The position numbers were made by a program, and so were the translations under genes. This document shows, one piece after another, positions 48,253-64,000 of a stretch of 64,000 nt of DNA. Under the pieces are notes generated by a model, which saw only the letters and a list, made by a program, of their open reading frames with translations, ran no database searches and was not told the origin of the DNA. The stretch is from Naegleria gruberi (lineage: Eukaryota), in the NCBI GenBank assembly GCA_000004985.1, contig GG738921.1, one strand, 5' to 3'. Numbering within the stretch: position 1 is the first letter of the stretch; each line of letters opens with the position of its first letter.

Positions 48253-49516
48253 TTTGATGTAATTTTTTTAAAATTTTAATTATAATAAAATTAAAAGATT
48301 TCTTGTTGTGATGGTGATCATCAAATAGTGAAGATTCAGACCATTAGTATTAAAATTCAAGTTTGTTGTTATCAATTAAATCAAACAAATAAAAAATTTG
48401 AAAAAAAAATAATCACTTCATCTCAGCATTGCTGATTATCTTCATCATTTCAATACGGAATACATTGATATTCAATGTACATCATCTTTGGATATCCATC
48501 AATAGTAGAATAGTAATTTTATTGTTTGAAATTTTAATCATCAAGAAATTTAATATCATCATCACTTGGGAAAAATTTCAAATCAATAAATACATCTCGG
48601 ATGTTGTTAGAACAGGTTAATTTGCTGTTCTAATAGTATTTTAAATAGTATTCCGCAAGTTTACTCTTTGAAATTATTTTTAATTTGGCTCAAAGTCGAT
48701 TTTCATCAAAATCATTAAAATCGGCCTATCTACTTGGTCATCACAAAAACCATCAATTGGAGATTGTTCATAATAGTAAATAGTATTTGTGGGGTCAATT
48801 TTGGAGACTGGATCTTTGTCTTCATTGGAATAGATACAAGATTATTTTCAACATGTAATGAATAATACCTCGTCATCTACTTGACCAAATCAAAAACTTT
48901 CTTCTAGTAGTACTATTTATTTTCACAATATATAACATCTTCATCGTTACTTTCTTCAATAGCATTGTCATTGTCATGGTGGAGGTTTCATCACCTATCC
49001 ACACATGTACAATATCGGAACATCATTCCAATATCATGGAGATGCTCCAATAAGTGTGGAGAATCATCCCACCAAGTTTTTTATCTTTAATAAAAGTGTT
49101 TCTCTTTTTTCACACTTTCTCAAGATTTGCAATTGTTCCTTCACATGATACTATTGATTTCAGAATCATATTTTGTTGTTAATTTTCAAAATGGATCATT
49201 ATTTGAGGAGATTTTGAGATACTTGATTTTACAGATCTAATAAAATTGCAGATACATTTTGTAATAACTGCTTAACATGAACTTCTGCAAAATTACAACA
49301 AACAAGCATTCAATAAGGCGGACATTTCCTATTGTCCTCGATGAATATTGATTCTTGAATATATTACTAATGAAAGAATGCGTGCGCAGCAGTATTTTTC
49401 ATTCTCACTAGTATAACCAAGTAGAAGTTTGTTTTAAAAATTTAAAAACTTCAAAAAAAATTAAATCACTTCTCGCCCACAACAAACTTGCAGCAGCACA
49501 TCATTTCTTTAGAAGA

Positions 49517-50593
49517 ATGACAAGTACTGGCACCTCCTCCAGTAATGGTAGAACCATGAAGATTTTGGTAGAGAGGGTTATTATGAATGATAATTCAGCA
49601 ACATCTTCATCTTTGAATACAACAATACCTGATCATTGGGATGTTCCGAAAAATTCATCATCTTCAACATCTTCACCTACTACAGTAGTAATACCTCCAG
49701 AAAAGTTTAAAGATCCTTGGATTGGAGTGAATCATGATAAATCAGTACTCGATGGAATGTCAATGATGAAGGATTTCTTATTTAATTCACCATCAATTCC
49801 GAGTGATGAAGAACTTCCTCAATTGAAACCGAATTGGGATAAATTAATGAACCCTAGTGAGTCTTCTGATGAATATCAAGTGACATGGATTGGACATTCG
49901 ACCTTTCTCATTCAGTACAGAGGTGTAAATATAATAACAGATCCTGTATTTTCAGAGAGATGTAGTCCTTCACAGTATTTTGGTCCAAAGAGAATTAAAC
50001 CAATTCCATTTCCAGATATCTCTAAATTGCCAAAGATTCATTTTGTGATTATATCTCATAATCACTACGATCATTTGGATGAACATGCATTCAAAGAGAT
50101 ACAGAAACATCATGATCCAATTTTCTTGTTACCATTCAAAATGAAATACAAGTGGATGATGAAACATTATTCAAATAGTGATGCCGAGAAGGAAAAACTT
50201 GTAGATTTGGATTGGTGGAAGGAAACTACATTCAAGGTTACAGCTGAGAATCAGACAGTTTCCAATCTGTCATTCGTATGTCTGCCAGCTCAGCATTGGA
50301 GTTCAAGAACAGGGTTTGATAGAAATCACGTCTTGTGGGGTTCTTGGGGATTCAAGTTTGATTATACTGATGGCAATGAGAATGTGACAAGATCTTTCTG
50401 GCATGCAGGTGATACAGGTTACAAGTAAGTAGACTTTTAATATTCATTCCTTAATAATTTTTTCAATAGTGGACAAACATTTAATCAAATTGGAGAACGA
50501 TTTGGTCCAATTGACTTTTCAATGATTCCAATTGGTGCCTATGAACCACGTTGGTTCATGAGTGATCAACATGTTGATCCAGAAGAAGCCATT
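49517..50593 (+). CDS. NAPE-PLD-like metallo-beta-lactamase-fold (zinc) hydrolase; exon 1 49517..50424, intron 50425..50469 (45 nt), exon 2 50470..50593 continuing into N-gap 50594-50867 (3' partial)
   Basis: [32 protein letters not shown] (metal-binding HxHxDH), AGDTGY|N|[40 protein letters not shown]. This closely matches the conserved C-terminal block of animal NAPE-PLD (..[33 protein letters not shown]). The N-terminal ~110 aa are S/T-rich. Confidence 0.8.
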
Positions 50594-50867
50594 NNNNNNN
50601 NNNNNNNNNNNNNNNNNNNNNNNNNNNNNNNNNNNNNNNNNNNNNNNNNNNNNNNNNNNNNNNNNNNNNNNNNNNNNNNNNNNNNNNNNNNNNNNNNNNN
50701 NNNNNNNNNNNNNNNNNNNNNNNNNNNNNNNNNNNNNNNNNNNNNNNNNNNNNNNNNNNNNNNNNNNNNNNNNNNNNNNNNNNNNNNNNNNNNNNNNNNN
50801 NNNNNNNNNNNNNNNNNNNNNNNNNNNNNNNNNNNNNNNNNNNNNNNNNNNNNNNNNNNNNNNNNNN

Positions 50868-50990
50868 GAAAGTAATTTTCTAATTATGAAGAATTGAAAC
50901 ACTATTCATGAATTGTTTGAAATTGTCATCTGTTGCAACAATGGAAGATTTCAATTATAATCATGAACAAATATTTGTGAAAATAAGGCA
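50868..50990 (+). pseudogene. Decayed fragment of a third kinase-HECT gene 3' end (HECT C-terminus) immediately after N-gap
   Basis: Sequence ..TATGAAGAATT-GAAACACTATTCATGAATTGTTTGAAATTGTCATCTGTTGCAACAATGGAAGAT.. encodes (E)TLFMNCLKLSSVATMED. That is near-identical to the C-termini of the two HECT genes (FETLFMNCLRLSSVATMED). It has a 1-nt deletion upstream, in YEEF, that breaks the frame. Confidence 0.5.
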
Positions 50991-51119
50991 GTGACAAATA
51001 TGAATCACAATAAATTTCCACTCTCCTTACTAATTTGTTGTTATTAAATAAAATATTAAATATTCTGGTTTGCGCCAAAATAAATTGTTTAAAAATGTTT
51101 TTGAAAAAAGATCAAAAAA

Positions 51120-54100
51120 ATGTCAACAACATTCGACCAAGTCTTCCATGCAGTTTCGGAAGGAAACATTGAATTTTTGAGACACATTGATTTACGTCCA
51201 TTTATTAATCATGAACAAGATGATCCCGACGATGAAGGTATTGTTACATTATTATGTACAGCGTGCGGCAGAGGACATTTGAAAATTGTAGAATTATTAT
51301 TGAATGTTGATGGAGTTGATGTAAACAAATGTGTATGTTTTCATAGATTAATTATTTGATGTTGAATGTAAATCTTTGAAATTTATATATGAAAATAGGG
51401 ACCGTTGTTTTTTGCTTGCCAAAACGGATACGTAGAAATTGTAAAATTATTGTTGAGTGTTGATGGAATTGATGTTAATCAAATTGTATGTAATAATGGA
51501 ATGAATAATGGAATGGTATATTTATATTAATGATTTTTATGATTATCTATAATAGAGAGTGTTACGTGAAGCATGTGAAAAAGGCTATTTTGAAATTGTA
51601 AAATTATTATTGGACTTTGATGGAATTAATGTTGACGCTTATGTATGTAGCAAATATTAATATTAAGAAGTTTAATATTAATTCTTCTTATTAGAAAGCA
51701 TTGCATGGAGCATGTTATGGAGGGAATTTTAATATTGTAAAATTATTACTTGCCAAGAATGCTCGAATAGGAAAAGAAGAAAGAAAAGAATATGATAAAA
51801 AAATCAAACCGAAAGTAAGTTTAGTTTTCAGATAAGTGTCAAATATAGTCCAATATTAGTTCAATCTCGAATATACTTTGGATGAATTAAAGGATAAAAT
51901 CTCACAATTACGAATTCAACATTGGAGAAATGTGANNNNNNNNNNNNNNNNNNNNNNNNNNNNNNNNNNNNNNNNNNNNNNNNNNNNNNNNNNNNNNNNN
52001 NNNNNNNNNNNNNNNNNNNNNNNNNNNNNNNNNNNNNNNNNNNNNNNNNNNNNNNNNNNNNNNNNNNNNNNNNNNNNNNNNNNNNNNNNNNNNNNNNNNN
52101 NNNNNNNNNNNNNNNNNNNNNNNNNNNNNNNNNNNNNNNNNNNNNNNNNNNNNNNNNNNNNNNNNNNNNNNNNNNNNNNNNNNNNNNNNNNNNNNNNNNN
52201 NNNNNNNNNNNNNNNNNNNNNNNNNNNNNNNNNATAATGATAAGAGAGAGTTGATAAATGAAATTGAAAGAGTTGAAAATAGTTTGAGAGAACATGAAGT
52301 TAATTTTGAATGTTTCCAAAATGTTAACAAATTGAAATTGAAAAAGAAAGATTTGTTCAAGTCACTAGCTGAAATCAAAGACAAAATAGAAGATATTGAA
52401 TATGCTAAAGACACACTTATATTCGAAATTAAAACTCAAAAAAGAAACAAGATTGGTAAAGTTGAGGAAATTGAAAGATTGGAGAAGAAACTTTCTGACA
52501 TGATTCAGGAATTATCAAACATGCACGAAAGAAAATCAGAAATCCAAAACGACTTGATGGAGCTGATTCCTAAATTTCCTGAAATTATTATTGAAATGGA
52601 ACAACCATTAGCAATAGATGGTGTTGTCATTTCATCATCAATGACACCAAAAGAAAAATTCAGAGTATTTGCACTTCAAAACTCTATTTTACTTTTAAAT
52701 ACTCAATTTTCAAATTATACTAACATTCAAACACTTCACACTGGATTATCAGTTGTTTACAAAGCAAGCAAATCTAATAGTCAGGTGGTTATTCTCAAAG
52801 AAATTTCTCTTTCAGAAAATAATTGTGAAACAGTAATGAATGAAATTATGAATTTGGTTATACTCAAAGGTCATCCTAGAATTATCAAATTGAATGGTGT
52901 ATTTATTGAATCACAATTTAATAAGGTTTATATTGAAACACCATATTATTCAAATGGAAATTTACTGGAGTATATCAACAAGATTAGAAATCATCATGAT
53001 TTACCAACTTTGAAGAACATGTTGAGAAGTTTATTTAGAAAAATGACAGAAACACTTCAATTTATCCATTCCAAAGATATTCTGCACAGAGATTTAAAAC
53101 CTCAAAATATTTTGGTGAATGAAAATGGAGAACCAATTATTGCAGATTTTGGATCAAGTAAGAAACTAATTGCTCAATTGACAAATAATACAATGGGAGT
53201 TGGAACATTGAAATATATGGCACCAGAAGTGAAAAGACAAGAAGAATCACCAAGTGAAAAATCAGACATTTGGTCATTGGGTGTTTCATTGTATGAATGT
53301 TGGCAATTGATTCAACAAATAAGTATGATGAATAATGCAACAGTTGAAATATTGAACTTTGACTCGAAGGGTAAGGTAGTTTTACCTACCAGTACTTTGA
53401 ATGATGAAATTGATATAACATTGATGAAAATGTTGAGTCACATGTTCAATAGCAATCCAGAAGACAGACCAAGTTCATTAACACTACTGACAGATTCAGA
53501 TTATTTCACAAATGAAAATCCTACAACAGATATACTTTCTAAATCTAATCAAAAAGAATTGGAAGGTTCTGAAAAGATATCACTTTGGCAAGCAAGATTA
53601 AAGAAGATGAAACAATTTTTGCCTGAAAGCACAGAAGGAGAAATCAAGGTTGACATCTATAGACACCGTCTATTGGAAGATATTGCCTCTATATATAAGG
53701 ATTTGATACCAATAGGGTATTCAGTGATATTTTACAAAACATTTGTGAAATATAAGGGAGAGACTGGAATAGACGCAGGAGGATTATCCAATGAGATGTA
53801 TTCTAAATATATTGAAGCCATACTGGAAAGCAAACATTTTCAAAATAGCGAAAGCTCACCAAATGAAAATTTCATTTTAACTGATGAACCACTCACAGAT
53901 GAATCTAAAAATCAATTGAGAACACTTGGGTTGTTATTGAAAAAGTTATTAATTGACTGTGACGACAAGACAGTTTATCTTCCATTGAATAGCTTTATAT
54001 TTTATTATTTATTGAATGGAAATGCTCTCAACAAAGAAACACTCCAATTTAATGCTATATCCCTTTTACTATCAAAATTCTTGAGAGAATATGATTTTGA

Positions 54101-54773
54101 ATTGGATAATCAAATATTTAGTGTGAAAAAATGTAAAAATGATGAAGAATTACAATCAATTACAATGGAAGAAACATTTATTGATGTTTTATCAAAGAGT
54201 GAGAAACCATTAATAATGGAAAATGTTCAATTATTCATCATTTCACAATTATATTCATATTTTTATTCTGATTTAAAGATTGAAAAATTGAAATTAATCA
54301 AACAAGGATTTGACTGGTTTAATTTGACTAAATTCAAACAAAGCTCAAAATTACCACCCAAGTTGAAAGAATTCCTAGACCTCCAAGGATCAAATTTTGA
54401 TGAGAAGTGTTTGAGTGTGAATGAATTGAAAATTCTCCTCTCAGGTCAATCATATATTGATGCTGATTTATTATTGAATGAAATAGACATGACCAGAATT
54501 TCACCAATAATGCAAGATCACTTCACTAAATGTATTAGAAAATTAACAAAAAGTCAATTGAGACAATTACTTGTTTGGATGACTTCACTTTCAAGCATTC
54601 CAATCAGAGGTTTTTCAAGAAAGATCTCAATTCGTGAATATAACAGATTTGAATCTCATACCTGTTCATTTGTATTTGATATTCCATCTCAAATAACCAA
54701 TTATGAACAATTTGAAACTCAATTCATGAATTGTTTGAGATTGTCATCTGTTGCAACTATGGAAGATCAATAG
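51120..54773 (+). CDS. Ankyrin-repeat / coiled-coil / protein kinase / HECT ubiquitin-ligase multidomain protein (copy A); exons 51120..51332, 51399..51485, 51556..51642, 51695..51814, 51860..(gap 51936-52233)..54773; introns 66, 70, 52, 45 nt
   Basis: Four ANK repeats, one per exon (..GPLFFACQNGYVEIVKLLLSVDGIDVNQI, RVLREACEKGYFEIVKLLLDFDGINVDAY, KALHGACYGGNFNIVKLLLAKNA). A coiled-coil region follows. The kinase domain has VVILKEI (K), HRDLKPQNILV, ADFGSSK, GTLKYMAPE and DIWSLGVSLYE. The HECT domain has GIDAGGLSNEMY and ..FESHTCSFVFDIPSQITNYEQFETQFMNCL, including the catalytic Cys. Confidence 0.8.
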
Positions 54774-55423: not shown

Positions 55424-57949
55424 TTAATTCTCCAAAGTGTTCTCCGTATCATTGAAATCTTCCATTGTTGCAACAGATGACAATCTCAAACAATTCATGA
55501 ATAGTGTTTCAAATTCTTCATAAGTGGTTATTTGTGAAGGAATATCAAATGAGAAAGAACATGTATGGGCTTCAAATCTTTTTTGCTCACGAATTGAGAT
55601 CTTTCTTGAAAAACCTCTAATCGGAATGCTTGAAAGTGCTGTCATCCAAACAAGTAATTGTCTCAATTGACTATTTGTTAATTTTCTTATACATTTAGTG
55701 AGGAAATCTTTCATAGTTTCCGAAACAAAATAGAAATTAATTTCATTTAACAATAAATCATCATCAATATATGATTGACCTGATAGGAGAATTTTCAATT
55801 CATTCACACTCAAATCTTGTTCAACAAAGTTTGGTCCTTGAAGGTGGAAAAATTCTCTCAATTCAGATTCAGTTGAAATACTAAAACTACAAATCAATTG
55901 AGTTTTGAATTGTTTCAAATTGAACCAATCAAATCCTTCTTTGATTAATTTCAATTTTTCCATTCTTATAGCACTGTAAAAGTATGGATGTAATTGAGAA
56001 ATGATATAGAGATGGATATTGTCCATAATAAGTGGTTTCTCAGTCTTTGATAAAACATCTGTGAACGTTTCTTCATATGCAATAGATTGTAATTCCTTAT
56101 CATTCTTACATTTTCTCAGATTCATAATTTGATTATCTAATTCAAAATCATATTCTCTCAAGAATTTTGAAAGTGTCAAGATCATGTCATTGATGTGTAG
56201 TGCTTGTTTCTTATAAATTATATCACCATTCAATAAATAATAGAATATAAAACTATTCAATGGAAGATAAACTGTCTTGTCGTCACAGTCAATTAATAAC
56301 TTTTTCAATAACCATCCAAAGGCCTTTAACTGAATTCTTGATTCATCTGTGAGTGGTTCATCAGTTAGAATGAAATTTTCGTTGGAAGATGTTTCACTCT
56401 TTTGAAAATGTTTGCTTTCCATTAACATGGATTCAGTATATTTGGAATAGAGTTCATTTGACAAACCTCCTACGTCTATCCCTTTCTCTTCCTTAAATTT
56501 TACAAATGTTTTGTAAAATATTGAATAGTTGTTATCTTTAGTCATGACTTTTTCAACAGTTAAAGAAGTATCTGTCAATAAATTTTCTCTGTCTATGTCA
56601 AATCTAATTTCGTTGCTAGGTGAAACTAAATAACCTTCTCTTCGGGCTAACGCAAGTTGTTTGAGTTTTTTCAATCTTGCCTGCCACAATGATAACTTTT
56701 CGGAGCTATCTAGTTTTTGATTTGATGTAGAAAGTAATTCGACAGTAATTGGATTTTCATTTGTGAAATAATCTCCATTTTCATTCACCAAAATATTTTG
56801 AGGTTTTAAATCTCTGTGAAGAATATCTTTGGAATGAATAAATTGAAGTGTTTCCGTGATTTTTCTAAATAAACTTCTCAACATGATTTTCAAAGTTTTA
56901 GTGTCGTGTTGAGGTTTAATCTTGTTGACATATTCCAATAAATTTCCATTTGAATAATATGGCGTTTCAATATAAATCTTATTAAAATTAGGTTCGATGA
57001 ACACACCATTCAATTTGATAATTCTTGAATGTACTTTCAATCTTACAATATTCATAATTTCATTCATAATAGCATCACAATTATTGTCTGTTGATTGAGA
57101 AAGTGAAATTTCTTTAAGAATAACCACTTGATTGTTTGACTTGCTTGATTTGTAGACAACTGATAATCCACTATGAACTGTTCCCATGATTGTATAATTT
57201 GAAAATTGAGTATTAAAAAGAAATATTGAGTTTTGAAGTGCAAATATTCTGAATTTTTCTTCAGGTGTGTTGCTTGTTGAAATAACAACACCATCTGCTG
57301 TTAGTGGTTGTTTCATTTCTACAATTATTTCTGGGAATGTTGAAATCAATTCCATTAAATTCTGTTCAATTTCTGTTTTTTGTTCATTCAATTCGGAAAT
57401 CTTTTTTCCCATTTCAGAAAGTTTCTTCTCCAATCTTTCAATATCTTCATTGTTTGTTCCAATTTTGTTTTTTCTAAGCTTTTTAATTTGAAGTCCAATT
57501 TCGTCCTTTTCCAAATCAATTTCATCAATGTCGTCCTTAATTAAGGCAAGTGATTTTAAAAGATCTTTCTTTTTCAATTTCAACTTGTTAATATTTTGAA
57601 AACATTCAAGATTTGTTGCATTTTCTCTAATGTTATCTTCCATTCTCTCAACTTGTTCCAACAATTCCTTGTTGTCCTTATCAAATTCACTTAATTTTCC
57701 AGAATAGTTTGTAATTATTTCGTCTCTAATTCTATCTCTCTCTTCAGTAAGTAGATACAACTCTTTAAATTCAACACTCTTTTCACAAGCGGACATTTCA
57801 GAGATTTGTTTTTCGATTCTATTTAATTCTTTTTTGAGCAAATGAATAGTTTGAGCTGATTTTGGAATTCTCACAACTGGTTCAACAACTGTAATACGAC
57901 TTGCTTCCATTAATTGATTTTCCAAAATTTTGATTCGTTCTAAATGTTC
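55424..57949 (-). CDS. Paralog (copy B) of the coiled-coil / kinase / HECT protein, with an in-frame ~117-codon deletion removing the kinase DFG/activation-loop/APE/C-lobe; 5' end lost in N-gap 57950-62085
   Basis: Same coiled-coil (LECFQNINKLKLKKKDLLKSLALIKDDIDEID..), kinase N-lobe and catalytic loop (VVILKEISL, HRDLKPQNILVNENG). It then jumps directly to DYFTNENPITVELL at about 56775. An intact HECT domain follows: GIDVGGLSNELY, ..FEAHTCSFSFDIPSQITTYEEFETLFMNCL. The ORF remains open into the gap at its 5' side. Confidence 0.75.
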   Translation of the reverse strand, partial: EHLERIKILENQLMEASRITVVEPVVRIPKSAQTIHLLKKELNRIEKQISEMSACEKSVEFKELYLLTEERDRIRDEIITNYSGKLSEFDKDNKELLEQVERMEDNIRENATNLECFQNINKLKLKKKDLLKSLALIKDDIDEIDLEKDEIGLQIKKLRKNKIGTNNEDIERLEKKLSEMGKKISELNEQKTEIEQNLMELISTFPEIIVEMKQPLTADGVVISTSNTPEEKFRIFALQNSIFLFNTQFSNYTIMGTVHSGLSVVYKSSKSNNQVVILKEISLSQSTDNNCDAIMNEIMNIVRLKVHSRIIKLNGVFIEPNFNKIYIETPYYSNGNLLEYVNKIKPQHDTKTLKIMLRSLFRKITETLQFIHSKDILHRDLKPQNILVNENGDYFTNENPITVELLSTSNQKLDSSEKLSLWQARLKKLKQLALARREGYLVSPSNEIRFDIDRENLLTDTSLTVEKVMTKDNNYSIFYKTFVKFKEEKGIDVGGLSNELYSKYTESMLMESKHFQKSETSSNENFILTDEPLTDESRIQLKAFGWLLKKLLIDCDDKTVYLPLNSFIFYYLLNGDIIYKKQALHINDMILTLSKFLREYDFELDNQIMNLRKCKNDKELQSIAYEETFTDVLSKTEKPLIMDNIHLYIISQLHPYFYSAIRMEKLKLIKEGFDWFNLKQFKTQLICSFSISTESELREFFHLQGPNFVEQDLSVNELKILLSGQSYIDDDLLLNEINFYFVSETMKDFLTKCIRKLTNSQLRQLLVWMTALSSIPIRGFSRKISIREQKRFEAHTCSFSFDIPSQITTYEEFETLFMNCLRLSSVATMEDFNDTENTLEN

Positions 57950-60900
57950 NNNNNNNNNNNNNNNNNNNNNNNNNNNNNNNNNNNNNNNNNNNNNNNNNNN
58001 NNNNNNNNNNNNNNNNNNNNNNNNNNNNNNNNNNNNNNNNNNNNNNNNNNNNNNNNNNNNNNNNNNNNNNNNNNNNNNNNNNNNNNNNNNNNNNNNNNNN
58101 NNNNNNNNNNNNNNNNNNNNNNNNNNNNNNNNNNNNNNNNNNNNNNNNNNNNNNNNNNNNNNNNNNNNNNNNNNNNNNNNNNNNNNNNNNNNNNNNNNNN
58201 NNNNNNNNNNNNNNNNNNNNNNNNNNNNNNNNNNNNNNNNNNNNNNNNNNNNNNNNNNNNNNNNNNNNNNNNNNNNNNNNNNNNNNNNNNNNNNNNNNNN
58301 NNNNNNNNNNNNNNNNNNNNNNNNNNNNNNNNNNNNNNNNNNNNNNNNNNNNNNNNNNNNNNNNNNNNNNNNNNNNNNNNNNNNNNNNNNNNNNNNNNNN
58401 NNNNNNNNNNNNNNNNNNNNNNNNNNNNNNNNNNNNNNNNNNNNNNNNNNNNNNNNNNNNNNNNNNNNNNNNNNNNNNNNNNNNNNNNNNNNNNNNNNNN
58501 NNNNNNNNNNNNNNNNNNNNNNNNNNNNNNNNNNNNNNNNNNNNNNNNNNNNNNNNNNNNNNNNNNNNNNNNNNNNNNNNNNNNNNNNNNNNNNNNNNNN
58601 NNNNNNNNNNNNNNNNNNNNNNNNNNNNNNNNNNNNNNNNNNNNNNNNNNNNNNNNNNNNNNNNNNNNNNNNNNNNNNNNNNNNNNNNNNNNNNNNNNNN
58701 NNNNNNNNNNNNNNNNNNNNNNNNNNNNNNNNNNNNNNNNNNNNNNNNNNNNNNNNNNNNNNNNNNNNNNNNNNNNNNNNNNNNNNNNNNNNNNNNNNNN
58801 NNNNNNNNNNNNNNNNNNNNNNNNNNNNNNNNNNNNNNNNNNNNNNNNNNNNNNNNNNNNNNNNNNNNNNNNNNNNNNNNNNNNNNNNNNNNNNNNNNNN
58901 NNNNNNNNNNNNNNNNNNNNNNNNNNNNNNNNNNNNNNNNNNNNNNNNNNNNNNNNNNNNNNNNNNNNNNNNNNNNNNNNNNNNNNNNNNNNNNNNNNNN
59001 NNNNNNNNNNNNNNNNNNNNNNNNNNNNNNNNNNNNNNNNNNNNNNNNNNNNNNNNNNNNNNNNNNNNNNNNNNNNNNNNNNNNNNNNNNNNNNNNNNNN
59101 NNNNNNNNNNNNNNNNNNNNNNNNNNNNNNNNNNNNNNNNNNNNNNNNNNNNNNNNNNNNNNNNNNNNNNNNNNNNNNNNNNNNNNNNNNNNNNNNNNNN
59201 NNNNNNNNNNNNNNNNNNNNNNNNNNNNNNNNNNNNNNNNNNNNNNNNNNNNNNNNNNNNNNNNNNNNNNNNNNNNNNNNNNNNNNNNNNNNNNNNNNNN
59301 NNNNNNNNNNNNNNNNNNNNNNNNNNNNNNNNNNNNNNNNNNNNNNNNNNNNNNNNNNNNNNNNNNNNNNNNNNNNNNNNNNNNNNNNNNNNNNNNNNNN
59401 NNNNNNNNNNNNNNNNNNNNNNNNNNNNNNNNNNNNNNNNNNNNNNNNNNNNNNNNNNNNNNNNNNNNNNNNNNNNNNNNNNNNNNNNNNNNNNNNNNNN
59501 NNNNNNNNNNNNNNNNNNNNNNNNNNNNNNNNNNNNNNNNNNNNNNNNNNNNNNNNNNNNNNNNNNNNNNNNNNNNNNNNNNNNNNNNNNNNNNNNNNNN
59601 NNNNNNNNNNNNNNNNNNNNNNNNNNNNNNNNNNNNNNNNNNNNNNNNNNNNNNNNNNNNNNNNNNNNNNNNNNNNNNNNNNNNNNNNNNNNNNNNNNNN
59701 NNNNNNNNNNNNNNNNNNNNNNNNNNNNNNNNNNNNNNNNNNNNNNNNNNNNNNNNNNNNNNNNNNNNNNNNNNNNNNNNNNNNNNNNNNNNNNNNNNNN
59801 NNNNNNNNNNNNNNNNNNNNNNNNNNNNNNNNNNNNNNNNNNNNNNNNNNNNNNNNNNNNNNNNNNNNNNNNNNNNNNNNNNNNNNNNNNNNNNNNNNNN
59901 NNNNNNNNNNNNNNNNNNNNNNNNNNNNNNNNNNNNNNNNNNNNNNNNNNNNNNNNNNNNNNNNNNNNNNNNNNNNNNNNNNNNNNNNNNNNNNNNNNNN
60001 NNNNNNNNNNNNNNNNNNNNNNNNNNNNNNNNNNNNNNNNNNNNNNNNNNNNNNNNNNNNNNNNNNNNNNNNNNNNNNNNNNNNNNNNNNNNNNNNNNNN
60101 NNNNNNNNNNNNNNNNNNNNNNNNNNNNNNNNNNNNNNNNNNNNNNNNNNNNNNNNNNNNNNNNNNNNNNNNNNNNNNNNNNNNNNNNNNNNNNNNNNNN
60201 NNNNNNNNNNNNNNNNNNNNNNNNNNNNNNNNNNNNNNNNNNNNNNNNNNNNNNNNNNNNNNNNNNNNNNNNNNNNNNNNNNNNNNNNNNNNNNNNNNNN
60301 NNNNNNNNNNNNNNNNNNNNNNNNNNNNNNNNNNNNNNNNNNNNNNNNNNNNNNNNNNNNNNNNNNNNNNNNNNNNNNNNNNNNNNNNNNNNNNNNNNNN
60401 NNNNNNNNNNNNNNNNNNNNNNNNNNNNNNNNNNNNNNNNNNNNNNNNNNNNNNNNNNNNNNNNNNNNNNNNNNNNNNNNNNNNNNNNNNNNNNNNNNNN
60501 NNNNNNNNNNNNNNNNNNNNNNNNNNNNNNNNNNNNNNNNNNNNNNNNNNNNNNNNNNNNNNNNNNNNNNNNNNNNNNNNNNNNNNNNNNNNNNNNNNNN
60601 NNNNNNNNNNNNNNNNNNNNNNNNNNNNNNNNNNNNNNNNNNNNNNNNNNNNNNNNNNNNNNNNNNNNNNNNNNNNNNNNNNNNNNNNNNNNNNNNNNNN
60701 NNNNNNNNNNNNNNNNNNNNNNNNNNNNNNNNNNNNNNNNNNNNNNNNNNNNNNNNNNNNNNNNNNNNNNNNNNNNNNNNNNNNNNNNNNNNNNNNNNNN
60801 NNNNNNNNNNNNNNNNNNNNNNNNNNNNNNNNNNNNNNNNNNNNNNNNNNNNNNNNNNNNNNNNNNNNNNNNNNNNNNNNNNNNNNNNNNNNNNNNNNNN

Positions 60901-62754
60901 NNNNNNNNNNNNNNNNNNNNNNNNNNNNNNNNNNNNNNNNNNNNNNNNNNNNNNNNNNNNNNNNNNNNNNNNNNNNNNNNNNNNNNNNNNNNNNNNNNNN
61001 NNNNNNNNNNNNNNNNNNNNNNNNNNNNNNNNNNNNNNNNNNNNNNNNNNNNNNNNNNNNNNNNNNNNNNNNNNNNNNNNNNNNNNNNNNNNNNNNNNNN
61101 NNNNNNNNNNNNNNNNNNNNNNNNNNNNNNNNNNNNNNNNNNNNNNNNNNNNNNNNNNNNNNNNNNNNNNNNNNNNNNNNNNNNNNNNNNNNNNNNNNNN
61201 NNNNNNNNNNNNNNNNNNNNNNNNNNNNNNNNNNNNNNNNNNNNNNNNNNNNNNNNNNNNNNNNNNNNNNNNNNNNNNNNNNNNNNNNNNNNNNNNNNNN
61301 NNNNNNNNNNNNNNNNNNNNNNNNNNNNNNNNNNNNNNNNNNNNNNNNNNNNNNNNNNNNNNNNNNNNNNNNNNNNNNNNNNNNNNNNNNNNNNNNNNNN
61401 NNNNNNNNNNNNNNNNNNNNNNNNNNNNNNNNNNNNNNNNNNNNNNNNNNNNNNNNNNNNNNNNNNNNNNNNNNNNNNNNNNNNNNNNNNNNNNNNNNNN
61501 NNNNNNNNNNNNNNNNNNNNNNNNNNNNNNNNNNNNNNNNNNNNNNNNNNNNNNNNNNNNNNNNNNNNNNNNNNNNNNNNNNNNNNNNNNNNNNNNNNNN
61601 NNNNNNNNNNNNNNNNNNNNNNNNNNNNNNNNNNNNNNNNNNNNNNNNNNNNNNNNNNNNNNNNNNNNNNNNNNNNNNNNNNNNNNNNNNNNNNNNNNNN
61701 NNNNNNNNNNNNNNNNNNNNNNNNNNNNNNNNNNNNNNNNNNNNNNNNNNNNNNNNNNNNNNNNNNNNNNNNNNNNNNNNNNNNNNNNNNNNNNNNNNNN
61801 NNNNNNNNNNNNNNNNNNNNNNNNNNNNNNNNNNNNNNNNNNNNNNNNNNNNNNNNNNNNNNNNNNNNNNNNNNNNNNNNNNNNNNNNNNNNNNNNNNNN
61901 NNNNNNNNNNNNNNNNNNNNNNNNNNNNNNNNNNNNNNNNNNNNNNNNNNNNNNNNNNNNNNNNNNNNNNNNNNNNNNNNNNNNNNNNNNNNNNNNNNNN
62001 NNNNNNNNNNNNNNNNNNNNNNNNNNNNNNNNNNNNNNNNNNNNNNNNNNNNNNNNNNNNNNNNNNNNNNNNNNNNNNNNNNNNNAAAAATAAATGAGAT
62101 GGAGTATATTCTATATGTTGAAATATGACAATTTGACAGATTGTTATTATTATCATATTGAATTCGATTCTAAAACACTAAAAATGATACCAGTTGTATA
62201 TCAGTGTGACTAAACGTACATGGTAAAGTTACACGATAATAGGATGTACTTTCATTGAGATAGAGTGTACACTTGGATATAATCACTCTTGACATTGAAC
62301 ATTTACTGATTGACTGAATGTAAGTTTCATGAATTGTTTCAAAACGTATATAGATGTATATAAATGATGTATATAATGTGTGTTATCAATTCTAGACTAA
62401 TTTCATATAAAATAAGTGAGTTGGAGCATAATCTTTGATTTTATGTCAAAGTTCTATAGTAAAATGATAGAGTTGACAACTCAATATCTACTGAACCAAT
62501 ATTCATGAAATTGATATCATATGCTAATTAGAGTGTCTACATATCATGGTATTAATTTCAGTGAAAATAGAGTTGTTTCTGGTCCCTTCAGATTTCCATC
62601 CATTCTCCTGACAAATCACCATGTACTATCCACTGGATGTATTTCTTGAAATGAAATTATATAATTTGATGAAAGTACACTTTATTTGAGATGTAGAACT
62701 CGATATTATCATTTATTTTGAGATTAGTAACTTTTCCTAAAGTGTCATCCTTAG

Positions 62755-62943
62755 TTGGGTTTGGGTTTGGGTTTGGGTTTGGGTTTGGGTTTGGGTTTGG
62801 GTTTGGGTTTGGGTTTGGGTTTGGGTTTGGGTTTGGGTTTGGGTTTGGGTTTGGGTTTGGGTTTGGGTTTGGGTTTGGGTTTGGGTTTGGGTTTGGGTTT
62901 GGGTTTGGGTTTGGGTTTGGGTTTGGGTTTGGGTTTGGGTTGA
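62755..62943 (+). repeat. (GGGTTT)n / (TTTGGG)n telomere-type hexamer tract (~31 units), internal, followed by 50-nt N-gap
   Basis: Perfect tandem GTTTGG repeats begin at ..CCTTAGTTGGG|TTTGGG. Unique AT-rich sequence lies 5' of it. G-rich strand is on +, running 5' to 3' toward the window end. Confidence 0.85.
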
Positions 62944-62993: not shown

Positions 62994-63636
62994 GATTTTA
63001 CAGATCTAATAAAATTGCAGATACATTTTGTAATAACTGCTTAACATGAACTTCTGCAAAATTACAACAAGTCTATTGAACCAACAAGTTGCTGAAACAA
63101 GCATTCAATAAGGCGGACATTTCCTATTGTCCTCGATGAATTATTGATTCTTGAATATATTACTAATGAAAGAATGCGTGCGCAGCATATTTTTCATTCT
63201 CAAGTAACCAAGTAGAAGTTTGTTTTAAAAAATTTAACAACTCCAAAAAAAATTAAATCACTTCTCGCCCACAACAAACTTGCAGCAGCACATCATTTCT
63301 TTAGAAGAATGACAAGTACTGGCACCTCCTCCAGTAATGGTAGAACCATGAAGATTTTGGTAGAGAGGGTTATTATGAATGATAATTCAACAACATCATC
63401 TTTGAATACAACAATACCTGATCATTGGGATGTTCCGAAAAATTCATCATCTTTGGCATCTTCAACATCTTCACCTACTACAGTAGTAATACCTCCAGAA
63501 AAGTTTAAAGATCCTTGGATTGGAGTGAATCATGATAAATCAGTACTCGATGGAATGTCAATGATGAAGGATTTCTTATTTAATTCACCATCAATTCCGA
63601 GTGATAAAGAACTTCCTCAATTGAAACCGAATTGGG
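62994..63636 (+). repeat. Subtelomeric duplicate (~640 bp, ~96% identical) of 49225..49838 = NAPE-PLD promoter, 5' UTR and first ~107 codons, truncated and capped by telomere repeats
   Basis: Collinear with 49225-49838. Small differences are 26-bp and 9-bp in-frame insertions and a few substitutions (e.g. GATGAAGAA to GATAAAGAA). The identity ends at CCGAATTGGG, where the original continues ATAAATTAATG and the copy continues TTTGGGTTTGGG. Confidence 0.85.
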
Positions 63637-64000
63637 TTTGGGTTTGGGTTTGGGTTTGGGTTTGGGTTTGGGTTTGGGTTTGGGTTTGGGTTTGGGTTTG
63701 GGTTTGGGTTTGGGTTTGGGTTTGGGTTTGGGTTTGGGTTTGGGTTTGGGTTTGGGTTTGGGTTTGGGTTTGGGTTTGGGTTTGGGTTTGGGTTTGGGTT
63801 TGGGTTTGGGTTTGGGTTTGGGTTTGGGTTTGGGTTTGGGTTTGGGTTTGGGTTTGGGTTTGGGTTTGGGTTTGGGTTTGGGTTTGGGTTTGGGTTTGGG
63901 TTTGGGTTTGGGTTTGGGTTTGGGTTTGGGTTTGGGTTTGGGTTTGGGTTTGGGTTTGGGTTTGGGTTTGGGTTTGGGTTTGGGTTTGGGTTTGGGTTTG
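63634..64000 (+). repeat. Terminal (GGGTTT)n telomere-type repeat tract running to the end of the window (at least 60 units)
   Basis: Uninterrupted GGGTTT hexamers from 63634 to 64000. G-rich strand is oriented 5' to 3' toward the right end, as expected for a right-arm chromosome terminus. Confidence 0.85.

Follow-up and report, generated by a model that had tools for sequence, protein, structure and literature searches.

A solitary fragment of a kinase-HECT gene end, probably a non-coding relic, close to a putative chromosome end of Naegleria gruberi

Gene relics, that is, unprocessed pseudogene fragments, are known from the subtelomeres of yeast, Plasmodium, and trypanosomes. Short templated (filler-DNA) insertions are formed at the repair junctions of double-strand breaks. 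As for the chromosome ends of Naegleria, the telomeres have reportedly so far only been inferred from genome data. A candidate telomere repeat of N. gruberi is TTTGGG (PMC3622300), while the kinase-bearing, highly divergent HECT proteins of this organism are assigned to the "GL-Bikonta" group (Grau-Bové et al. 2013, PMC3673628).

The locus described here belongs to a window of 64,000 nt (the whole stretch of DNA that was analysed) from the N. gruberi NEG-M draft assembly, in which eight N-runs are present. In the spacer between a NAPE-PLD-like gene and a kinase-HECT gene (gene A), the window holds a HECT-tail-like island of 78 nt (50882–50959, + strand) that matches the ~25 codons with which the kinase-HECT genes end and is of the lineage of a second one (gene B). 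It starts 15 nt past an assembly gap of 274 N and has the same orientation as gene A, whose ATG lies 161 nt downstream. This fragment is a new instance of a familiar kind, the subtelomeric gene fragment. It resembles the relics mentioned above in being short and truncated, in deriving from a family that has been duplicated locally, and in its disabled frame; it also lies within ~12 kb of telomere repeats, surrounded by paralogues, inverted duplicates, and terminal truncations. Unlike them, it is one fragment next to two full genes rather than part of a large array, and it comes from a signalling enzyme family instead of a surface-antigen or stress-gene family. With filler-DNA insertions it shares a length of tens of nucleotides, an inverted candidate donor at a distance of a few kb in the same chromosome, abrupt junctions, and small errors; however, a duplication plus a deletion fits almost as well. 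Regarding the GL-Bikonta proteins (PMC3673628), genes A and B are candidate members, and the fragment corresponds to the conserved C-terminal tail of the family. Nevertheless, it has no kinase domain, HECT N-lobe, catalytic cysteine, or open frame, and is a derivative of the group, not a member.

Gene A (51120–54773, + strand; XP_002669909.1 / NAEGRDRAFT_75175, P0121) has a length of ~3.65 kb, interrupted by a gap of 298 N at 51936–52233, and encodes ankyrin (Ank) repeats, a coiled coil, a protein kinase, and a divergent HECT domain. Pfam profiles recognize Ank, Pkinase (1e-41, residues 166–413), and HECT (38.9 bits versus a cut-off of 23.9, residues 537–823), and the HECT part matches the HECT C-lobe of HUWE1 with an E value of 2e-6. 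Gene A therefore combines in one polypeptide a kinase domain with a divergent HECT domain C-terminal to it, an arrangement of which the fragment retains nothing. Gene B (55424–57925, − strand) is an inverted paralogue, placed tail-to-tail with gene A, whose N-terminus is lost in a gap of 4,136 N (57950–62085). Both genes are 71.5% identical at the amino-acid level and 78.6% at the nucleotide level. An exhaustive profile search, in which matches above 50% identity were merged into one representative, retrieved an Ank-kinase-HECT protein from Willaertia magna (P0123), 41% identical, together with metagenomic relatives. The Willaertia protein holds Ank and Pkinase domains and aligns over the entire HECT part. 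All the relatives share the C-terminal motif Y-E-x-F-x-x-x-F-x-x-x-L-x-x-S-x-x-A-T-x-E-[DE], and end 0–2 residues after it.

The pair also exhibits some features of its own. Compared to gene A, gene B has undergone an in-frame loss of ~123 codons, opposite gene A 53151–53519, which takes away the kinase DFG motif, the activation segment, and the kinase C-lobe, so that only positions 13–136 of the 263 of the Pkinase profile remain. In the 75 nt before this deletion (gene A 53076–53150), the identity between both genes rises to 99%, against an average of 78.6%, a stretch that may represent a conversion tract. The annotated model of gene A, on its part, places the 298-N gap in an intron, joining ...YDKKIKPK to KDLFKSLAEIK... 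(window 51836–52340), and leaves out the coiled-coil codons at 52251–52340, which are also found in gene B; the public gene A protein is probably ~50–100 residues short.

The relationship of the fragment with these genes is clear from BLAST alignments. Nucleotides 50882–50959 match the 3' coding end of gene B (55523–55447, minus strand) at 74 of 77 positions (96.1%, one gap, E 1.2e-29), and the 3' end of gene A (54699–54767) at 63 of 69 (91.3%, E 1.6e-21), which confirms the homology to A and B and the original observation of near-identity with the end of both genes. The pair formed by the fragment and gene B is also listed as inverted repeat I9 (97% over 66 nt), and the window holds a 35-nt core in exactly three places, while none of 100 shuffles contains it. 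The island, translated as NYEE(F)ETLFMNCLKLSSVATMEDFN, corresponds to the C-terminal tail of the family and resembles the end of a genuine HECT (PF00632) protein. Two aspects of the earlier description have to be modified. The copy had been delimited to 50868–50990, but its homologous part comprises only the 78 nt of the island, with unrelated flanks; and it had been called decayed, although it is truncated rather than eroded, its identity with gene B (96%) exceeding the ~93% observed between A and B over the same stretch, and by far the 78.6% between them gene-wide.

Of the five sites at which A and B differ, four have the B-type base in the fragment. Moreover, fragment and gene B have in common a derived read-through, TTCAAT (Phe-Asn; "MEDFN"), past the usual ...ATxE[DE] end of the family. 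The shared read-through and the B-type sites point to a young copy of the B lineage, and gene B is the closest relative of the fragment, likely either its donor or its sister. The fragment differs from B at 2–3 of 77 nt, whereas A and B exhibit a nucleotide divergence of 21% and changes in 25% of the conserved codons; so few differences suggest that the copy is much younger than the A/B duplication. By our own rough estimate, roughly ten substitutions would be expected under neutrality since the A/B split (Poisson P(<=3 | 11) = 0.005). Constraint at the nucleotide level on the 3' end of the genes was considered and rejected, as the fraction of identical codons between A and B in their last 25 codons (0.89) falls within the 0.46–0.96 of other windows. 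The high identity needs no special constraint, young age being the simpler account.

The homology ends abruptly on both sides. Between the gap edge and the fragment there are 14 nt of non-homologous sequence (50868–50881, + strand), with 4/14 identities to B and 5/14 to A, while A and B agree with each other at 12/14 of these sites. Chance alone would give 0.277 matches per site, i.e., 3.9, and the probability of 5/14 or fewer at the gene-wide identity of 0.786 is 6.5e-4, for a junction judged from only 14 nt at a contig end. On the downstream side, a unique tail (50960–50994, + strand) reads ..NHEQIFVKIRQ, a residual reading frame closed by a TGA at 50992–50994. Past 50959, this tail is unrelated to those of gene B (DTENTLEN*) and gene A (Q*), the three being mutually unrelated; alignment downstream of this point detected no similarity to A or B, and no relative of the tail is detectable.

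Within the fragment, the reading frame is broken by the loss of one nucleotide (50894–50895, + strand), where TT replaces the TTT of A and B in the (E)F codon, so that GAAGAATTTGAAAC of gene B becomes GAAGAATTGAAAC at 50888–50900, as the sequence is given; the alignment thus bears out the frame-breaking deletion initially proposed. From 50896 the frame reads ETLFMNCLKLSSVATMEDFNYNHEQIFVKIRQ, up to the stop at 50992–50994, and from ETLF through its own tail it is continuous for 33 codons until this TGA. Upstream, this ETLF frame is closed before the gap by a TAA at 50881–50883 and a TGA at 50887–50889, and the YEE frame contains a TAA at 50873–50875, so repairing the 1-nt loss would still leave the frame closed. 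Intron splicing was also tested as a means of rescuing the frame and was rejected, because the sole upstream AG (50871–50872) would place the TAA of the YEE frame at the start of the exon, and stops follow within 10 codons in the remaining phases, leaving no usable splice acceptor.

In terms of the HECT domain, the fragment represents what follows the catalytic HTC motif in the gene. The HTC codons of A and B, which encode the catalytic cysteine ~35 residues from the C-terminus, lie ~40 nt upstream of the point equivalent to 50882; at this place, where the catalytic cysteine of PF00632 would be encoded, unrelated sequence precedes the fragment, and beyond it lies the gap. Likewise, the continuous open reading frame that leads from the N-lobe/C-lobe to the C-terminal tail in PF00632 proteins is disrupted here by the TAA at 50873–50875, the TAA at 50881–50883, the TGA at 50887–50889, and the 1-nt loss. 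Homology, truncation, and frame disruption, three attributes of a pseudogene fragment, are all present.

The other side of the gap is occupied by the NAPE-PLD-like metallo-beta-lactamase gene (49517–50593, + strand), which has an exon at 49517–50424, an intron at 50425–50469, and a second exon (50470–50593) cut by the gap. It matches the Pfam families Lactamase_B_2/B_3, and the ORF 49517–50428 is a 100% match to an N. gruberi predicted protein (P0001). The annotated model derived from it (303 aa) ends at a TAA inside the 45-nt intron 50425–50469, which had gone unrecognised; as the reading with the intron removed runs into the gap and matches the relatives, the public model is truncated. Aligned to seven relatives from Naegleria, Willaertia, and metagenomes, the gene stops at ...HVDPEEAI and misses a conserved block of ~57 residues plus a variable tail, which amount to 62–95 codons (186–285 nt), in agreement with the earlier claim that its 3' end is missing. 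In the closest relative (L001), 75 more codons follow, 228 nt including the stop.

This deficit is to be compared with the size of the gap (50594–50867, 274 N), which separates the NAPE-PLD contig from a contig of 1,068 bp (50868–51935) bounded by gaps on both sides. In assemblies of this type, N-runs of lengths other than 50 are estimates from mate pairs. Since the missing 62–95 codons are about as long as the estimated gap, there is little room in it for a third gene of more than 3.6 kb. Exact-protein look-ups with P0001, P0121, and the first ORF of gene A retrieved no other assembly spanning the gap.

The fact that gap sizes are only estimates is what an intact third gene would rely on: the gap would be far longer than 274 nt and would contain the 3' end of NAPE-PLD and ~3.6 kb of an Ank-kinase-HECT gene, the stops and the frameshift being sequencing errors. 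Contigs often break within repeated gene families, and the fragment keeps 96% identity to B and the conserved C-terminal motif of the family. Nevertheless, we regard this explanation as highly improbable. The sequence that borders the gap (14 nt) shows no relation to A or B (P < 1e-3), it would take three erroneous stops and an erroneous frameshift within 30 nt, no usable splice acceptor restores the frame, and the gap would have to be underestimated ~14-fold in a scaffold that reports a large gap as 4,136 N. Furthermore, the related species do not have such a gene after NAPE-PLD. In N. lovaniensis (L002), N. fowleri (L003), and the metagenomic relative L001, NAPE-PLD is followed by unrelated genes, with no kinase-HECT gene among them, and the Ank-kinase-HECT orthologue of W. 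magna (L004) is a single copy at a different locus. The adjacency and the inverted pair therefore appear to be specific to N. gruberi, although the synteny of relatives is only indirect evidence.

Two options had originally been considered, a third family member lying inside the gap and a pseudogene remnant. The latter is supported by the truncation and the frameshift, while the former is argued against by the junction, the stops, the space available in the gap, and the 3.65 kb that such a gene would need. The 5' part of the HECT copy, which had been taken to exist and to be unaccounted for, probably does not exist.

Near its right end, the window contains, on the + strand, a perfect (TTTGGG)n array of 31 units (62755–62941) and another of more than 61 units (63632–64000). 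In this orientation the G-rich strand points 5' to 3' toward the terminus, as in the arrays of the species repeat that delimit subtelomeric regions, and the arrays mark a putative scaffold end. Two contigs ending in telomere repeats have been joined in one scaffold across a 50-N gap, from which it follows that at least one of the joins at this point is probably spurious. Between the arrays, the NAPE-PLD promoter and the first ~108 codons recur at 62994–63636 (compared with 49225–49838), with six mismatches in 606 ungapped columns (99% identity) and seven indels of 1–26 nt. This second copy stops short of the spacer in which the fragment lies. It may represent another haplotype, or a paralogous chromosome end devoid of the kinase-HECT pair. 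In any case, the assembly of this chromosome end mixes more than one version of the locus.

This mixture is relevant to a further alternative, in which the situation of the fragment is an artefact of assembly or scaffolding. The 1,068-bp contig would be misplaced, would come from another haplotype or a paralogous end, or would have a chimeric or low-quality stretch in its first ~100 nt, so that neither the junction nor the 1-nt loss nor the position next to NAPE-PLD would reflect the real chromosome. Such errors are conceivable in a contig only ~1–2 Sanger reads long, with gaps on both sides, and in a region where two versions are mixed, two telomere-ending contigs are chained in one scaffold, and the 99%-identical NAPE-PLD 5' copy with its seven indels is appended after a telomere array; the 1-nt loss, in addition, falls in a T run at the contig end. 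However, the fall from 74/77 to the level of chance is abrupt, while the decay of quality at a read end would be gradual. The other end of the contig suits gene A, since its Ank repeats and the coiled coil that follows continue in register with gene B across the 298-N gap, and the two substitutions with respect to B favour a separate locus over a mis-joined B read. An artefact thus appears rather unlikely, albeit somewhat less so than an intact gene hidden in the gap.

Taking the above into account, the most probable explanation, to which we assign a probability of roughly 0.75, is that the fragment is a solitary, non-coding relic in a plastic subtelomere, produced either by a templated copy or by a deletion. 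Of these two routes, a templated copy from gene B during break repair is tentatively preferred, slightly ahead of the other. According to this model, the repair of a break would have copied a short stretch of gene B into the spacer between NAPE-PLD and gene A, as a templated "filler" insertion or as a very short ectopic conversion, and the copy would later have gained the 1-nt deletion and two or three substitutions. The fragment would do nothing, no intact gene would end in it, and what the gap mainly hides would be the last 62–95 codons of NAPE-PLD. One event of short copying explains both abrupt junctions as well as the length, which is typical of such insertions. The combination of a short insert and a nearby donor, by which filler insertions are recognized, is found here, with 78 nt and the corresponding stretch of gene B (55446–55523) inverted at a distance of 4.5 kb. 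The true donor, on the other hand, could be another N. gruberi copy located elsewhere, such as a full gene ending in ...MEDFNYNHEQIFVKIRQ*. An inversion with staggered breaks was also considered as the origin, but the duplicated piece would then be expected at a breakpoint, whereas it falls within the segment that would have been inverted, and this origin was rejected.

The deletion route fits the data almost as well as the templated copy, even though we consider it a less likely, if still plausible, origin. It supposes a third gene X, sister of B (B being copied from X, or X from B), that once lay head-to-tail upstream of gene A and was deleted upstream of 50882, leaving only its ~25 terminal codons and its distinct tail (FNYNHEQIFVKIRQ*) as a dead remnant. 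The 33-codon frame that continues from ETLF through a distinct tail to the stop at 50992–50994 resembles a true gene end, the orientation and the distance of 161 nt to the ATG of gene A are those of a tandem array, the derived "MEDFN" read-through is common to the fragment and B, and terminal deletions are known in this region. However, this route supposes no fewer than two events, with a deletion following a duplication, where one suffices; there is no further trace of X in the window; and the tail after 50959 has no detectable relative that would mark it as coding.

A functional role would be another way of explaining the high identity to gene B, unexpected for a supposedly neutral piece. 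The 78 nt could act as nucleic acid, in the form of a NAPE-PLD 3' UTR, a gene A 5' leader, or an antisense source of small RNAs against the kinase-HECT mRNAs, or could supply the last NAPE-PLD codons. For the latter, frame 1 from 50868 (ESNFLIMKN*) is open into the gap and has its stop (50895–50897) inside the fragment, and the paralogue tails ...NIWESTE* and ...NLFSNTQQL* are loosely like ESN.... Frame 1 (50868–50897) is the only one open into the gap, and its resemblance to the paralogue tails is too weak to decide. Should ESNFLIMKN* be the true C-terminus of NAPE-PLD, the fragment would supply its last four codons and the stop. Against a functional element, a likeness of three residues is no evidence, the conservation is unexceptional (0.89 within 0.46–0.96), and young age explains the identity more simply, all of which makes it very improbable. 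Scanned against Rfam, the 1,068-bp contig produced no match, only a sub-threshold bacterial sRNA (18 bits against 50). Even so, if the fragment were transcribed as part of the NAPE-PLD 3' end, of the gene A leader, or in antisense, it might couple the expression of its neighbours to that of the kinase-HECT pair, for instance through small RNAs, as RNAi machinery is present; we deem this a long shot.

For annotation purposes, the solitary-relic interpretation means that no third kinase-HECT gene is to be expected in the gap at 50594–50867, and that the fragment is better labelled a pseudogene remnant and kept out of gene models. It also provides one small data point on the plasticity of chromosome ends, together with the inverted paralogue pair, the deleted kinase lobe, and the telomere-healed 5' copy of NAPE-PLD. 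In a milder version of the regulatory proposal, the fragment and the telomere-capped NAPE-PLD copy would simply record ongoing cycles of break, copy, and heal at one chromosome end; if this holds true, the kinase-HECT pair would be hemizygous or variable in copy number.

The telomere-capped NAPE-PLD copy outranks the fragment itself in interest. This copy breaks at ...CCGAATTGGG and is directly followed by TTTGGG repeats, and being broken and capped, it indicates that break and repair events do occur at this chromosome end. It looks like a de novo telomere addition (chromosome healing) inside a gene, since the copy, broken at ...AATTGGG, runs into (TTTGGG)n with a TTGGG seed common to both; this likeness, however, concerns the truncated NAPE-PLD copy at 63632 and not the HECT fragment. 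It would thus constitute a sequence-level case of de novo TTTGGG addition in Naegleria.
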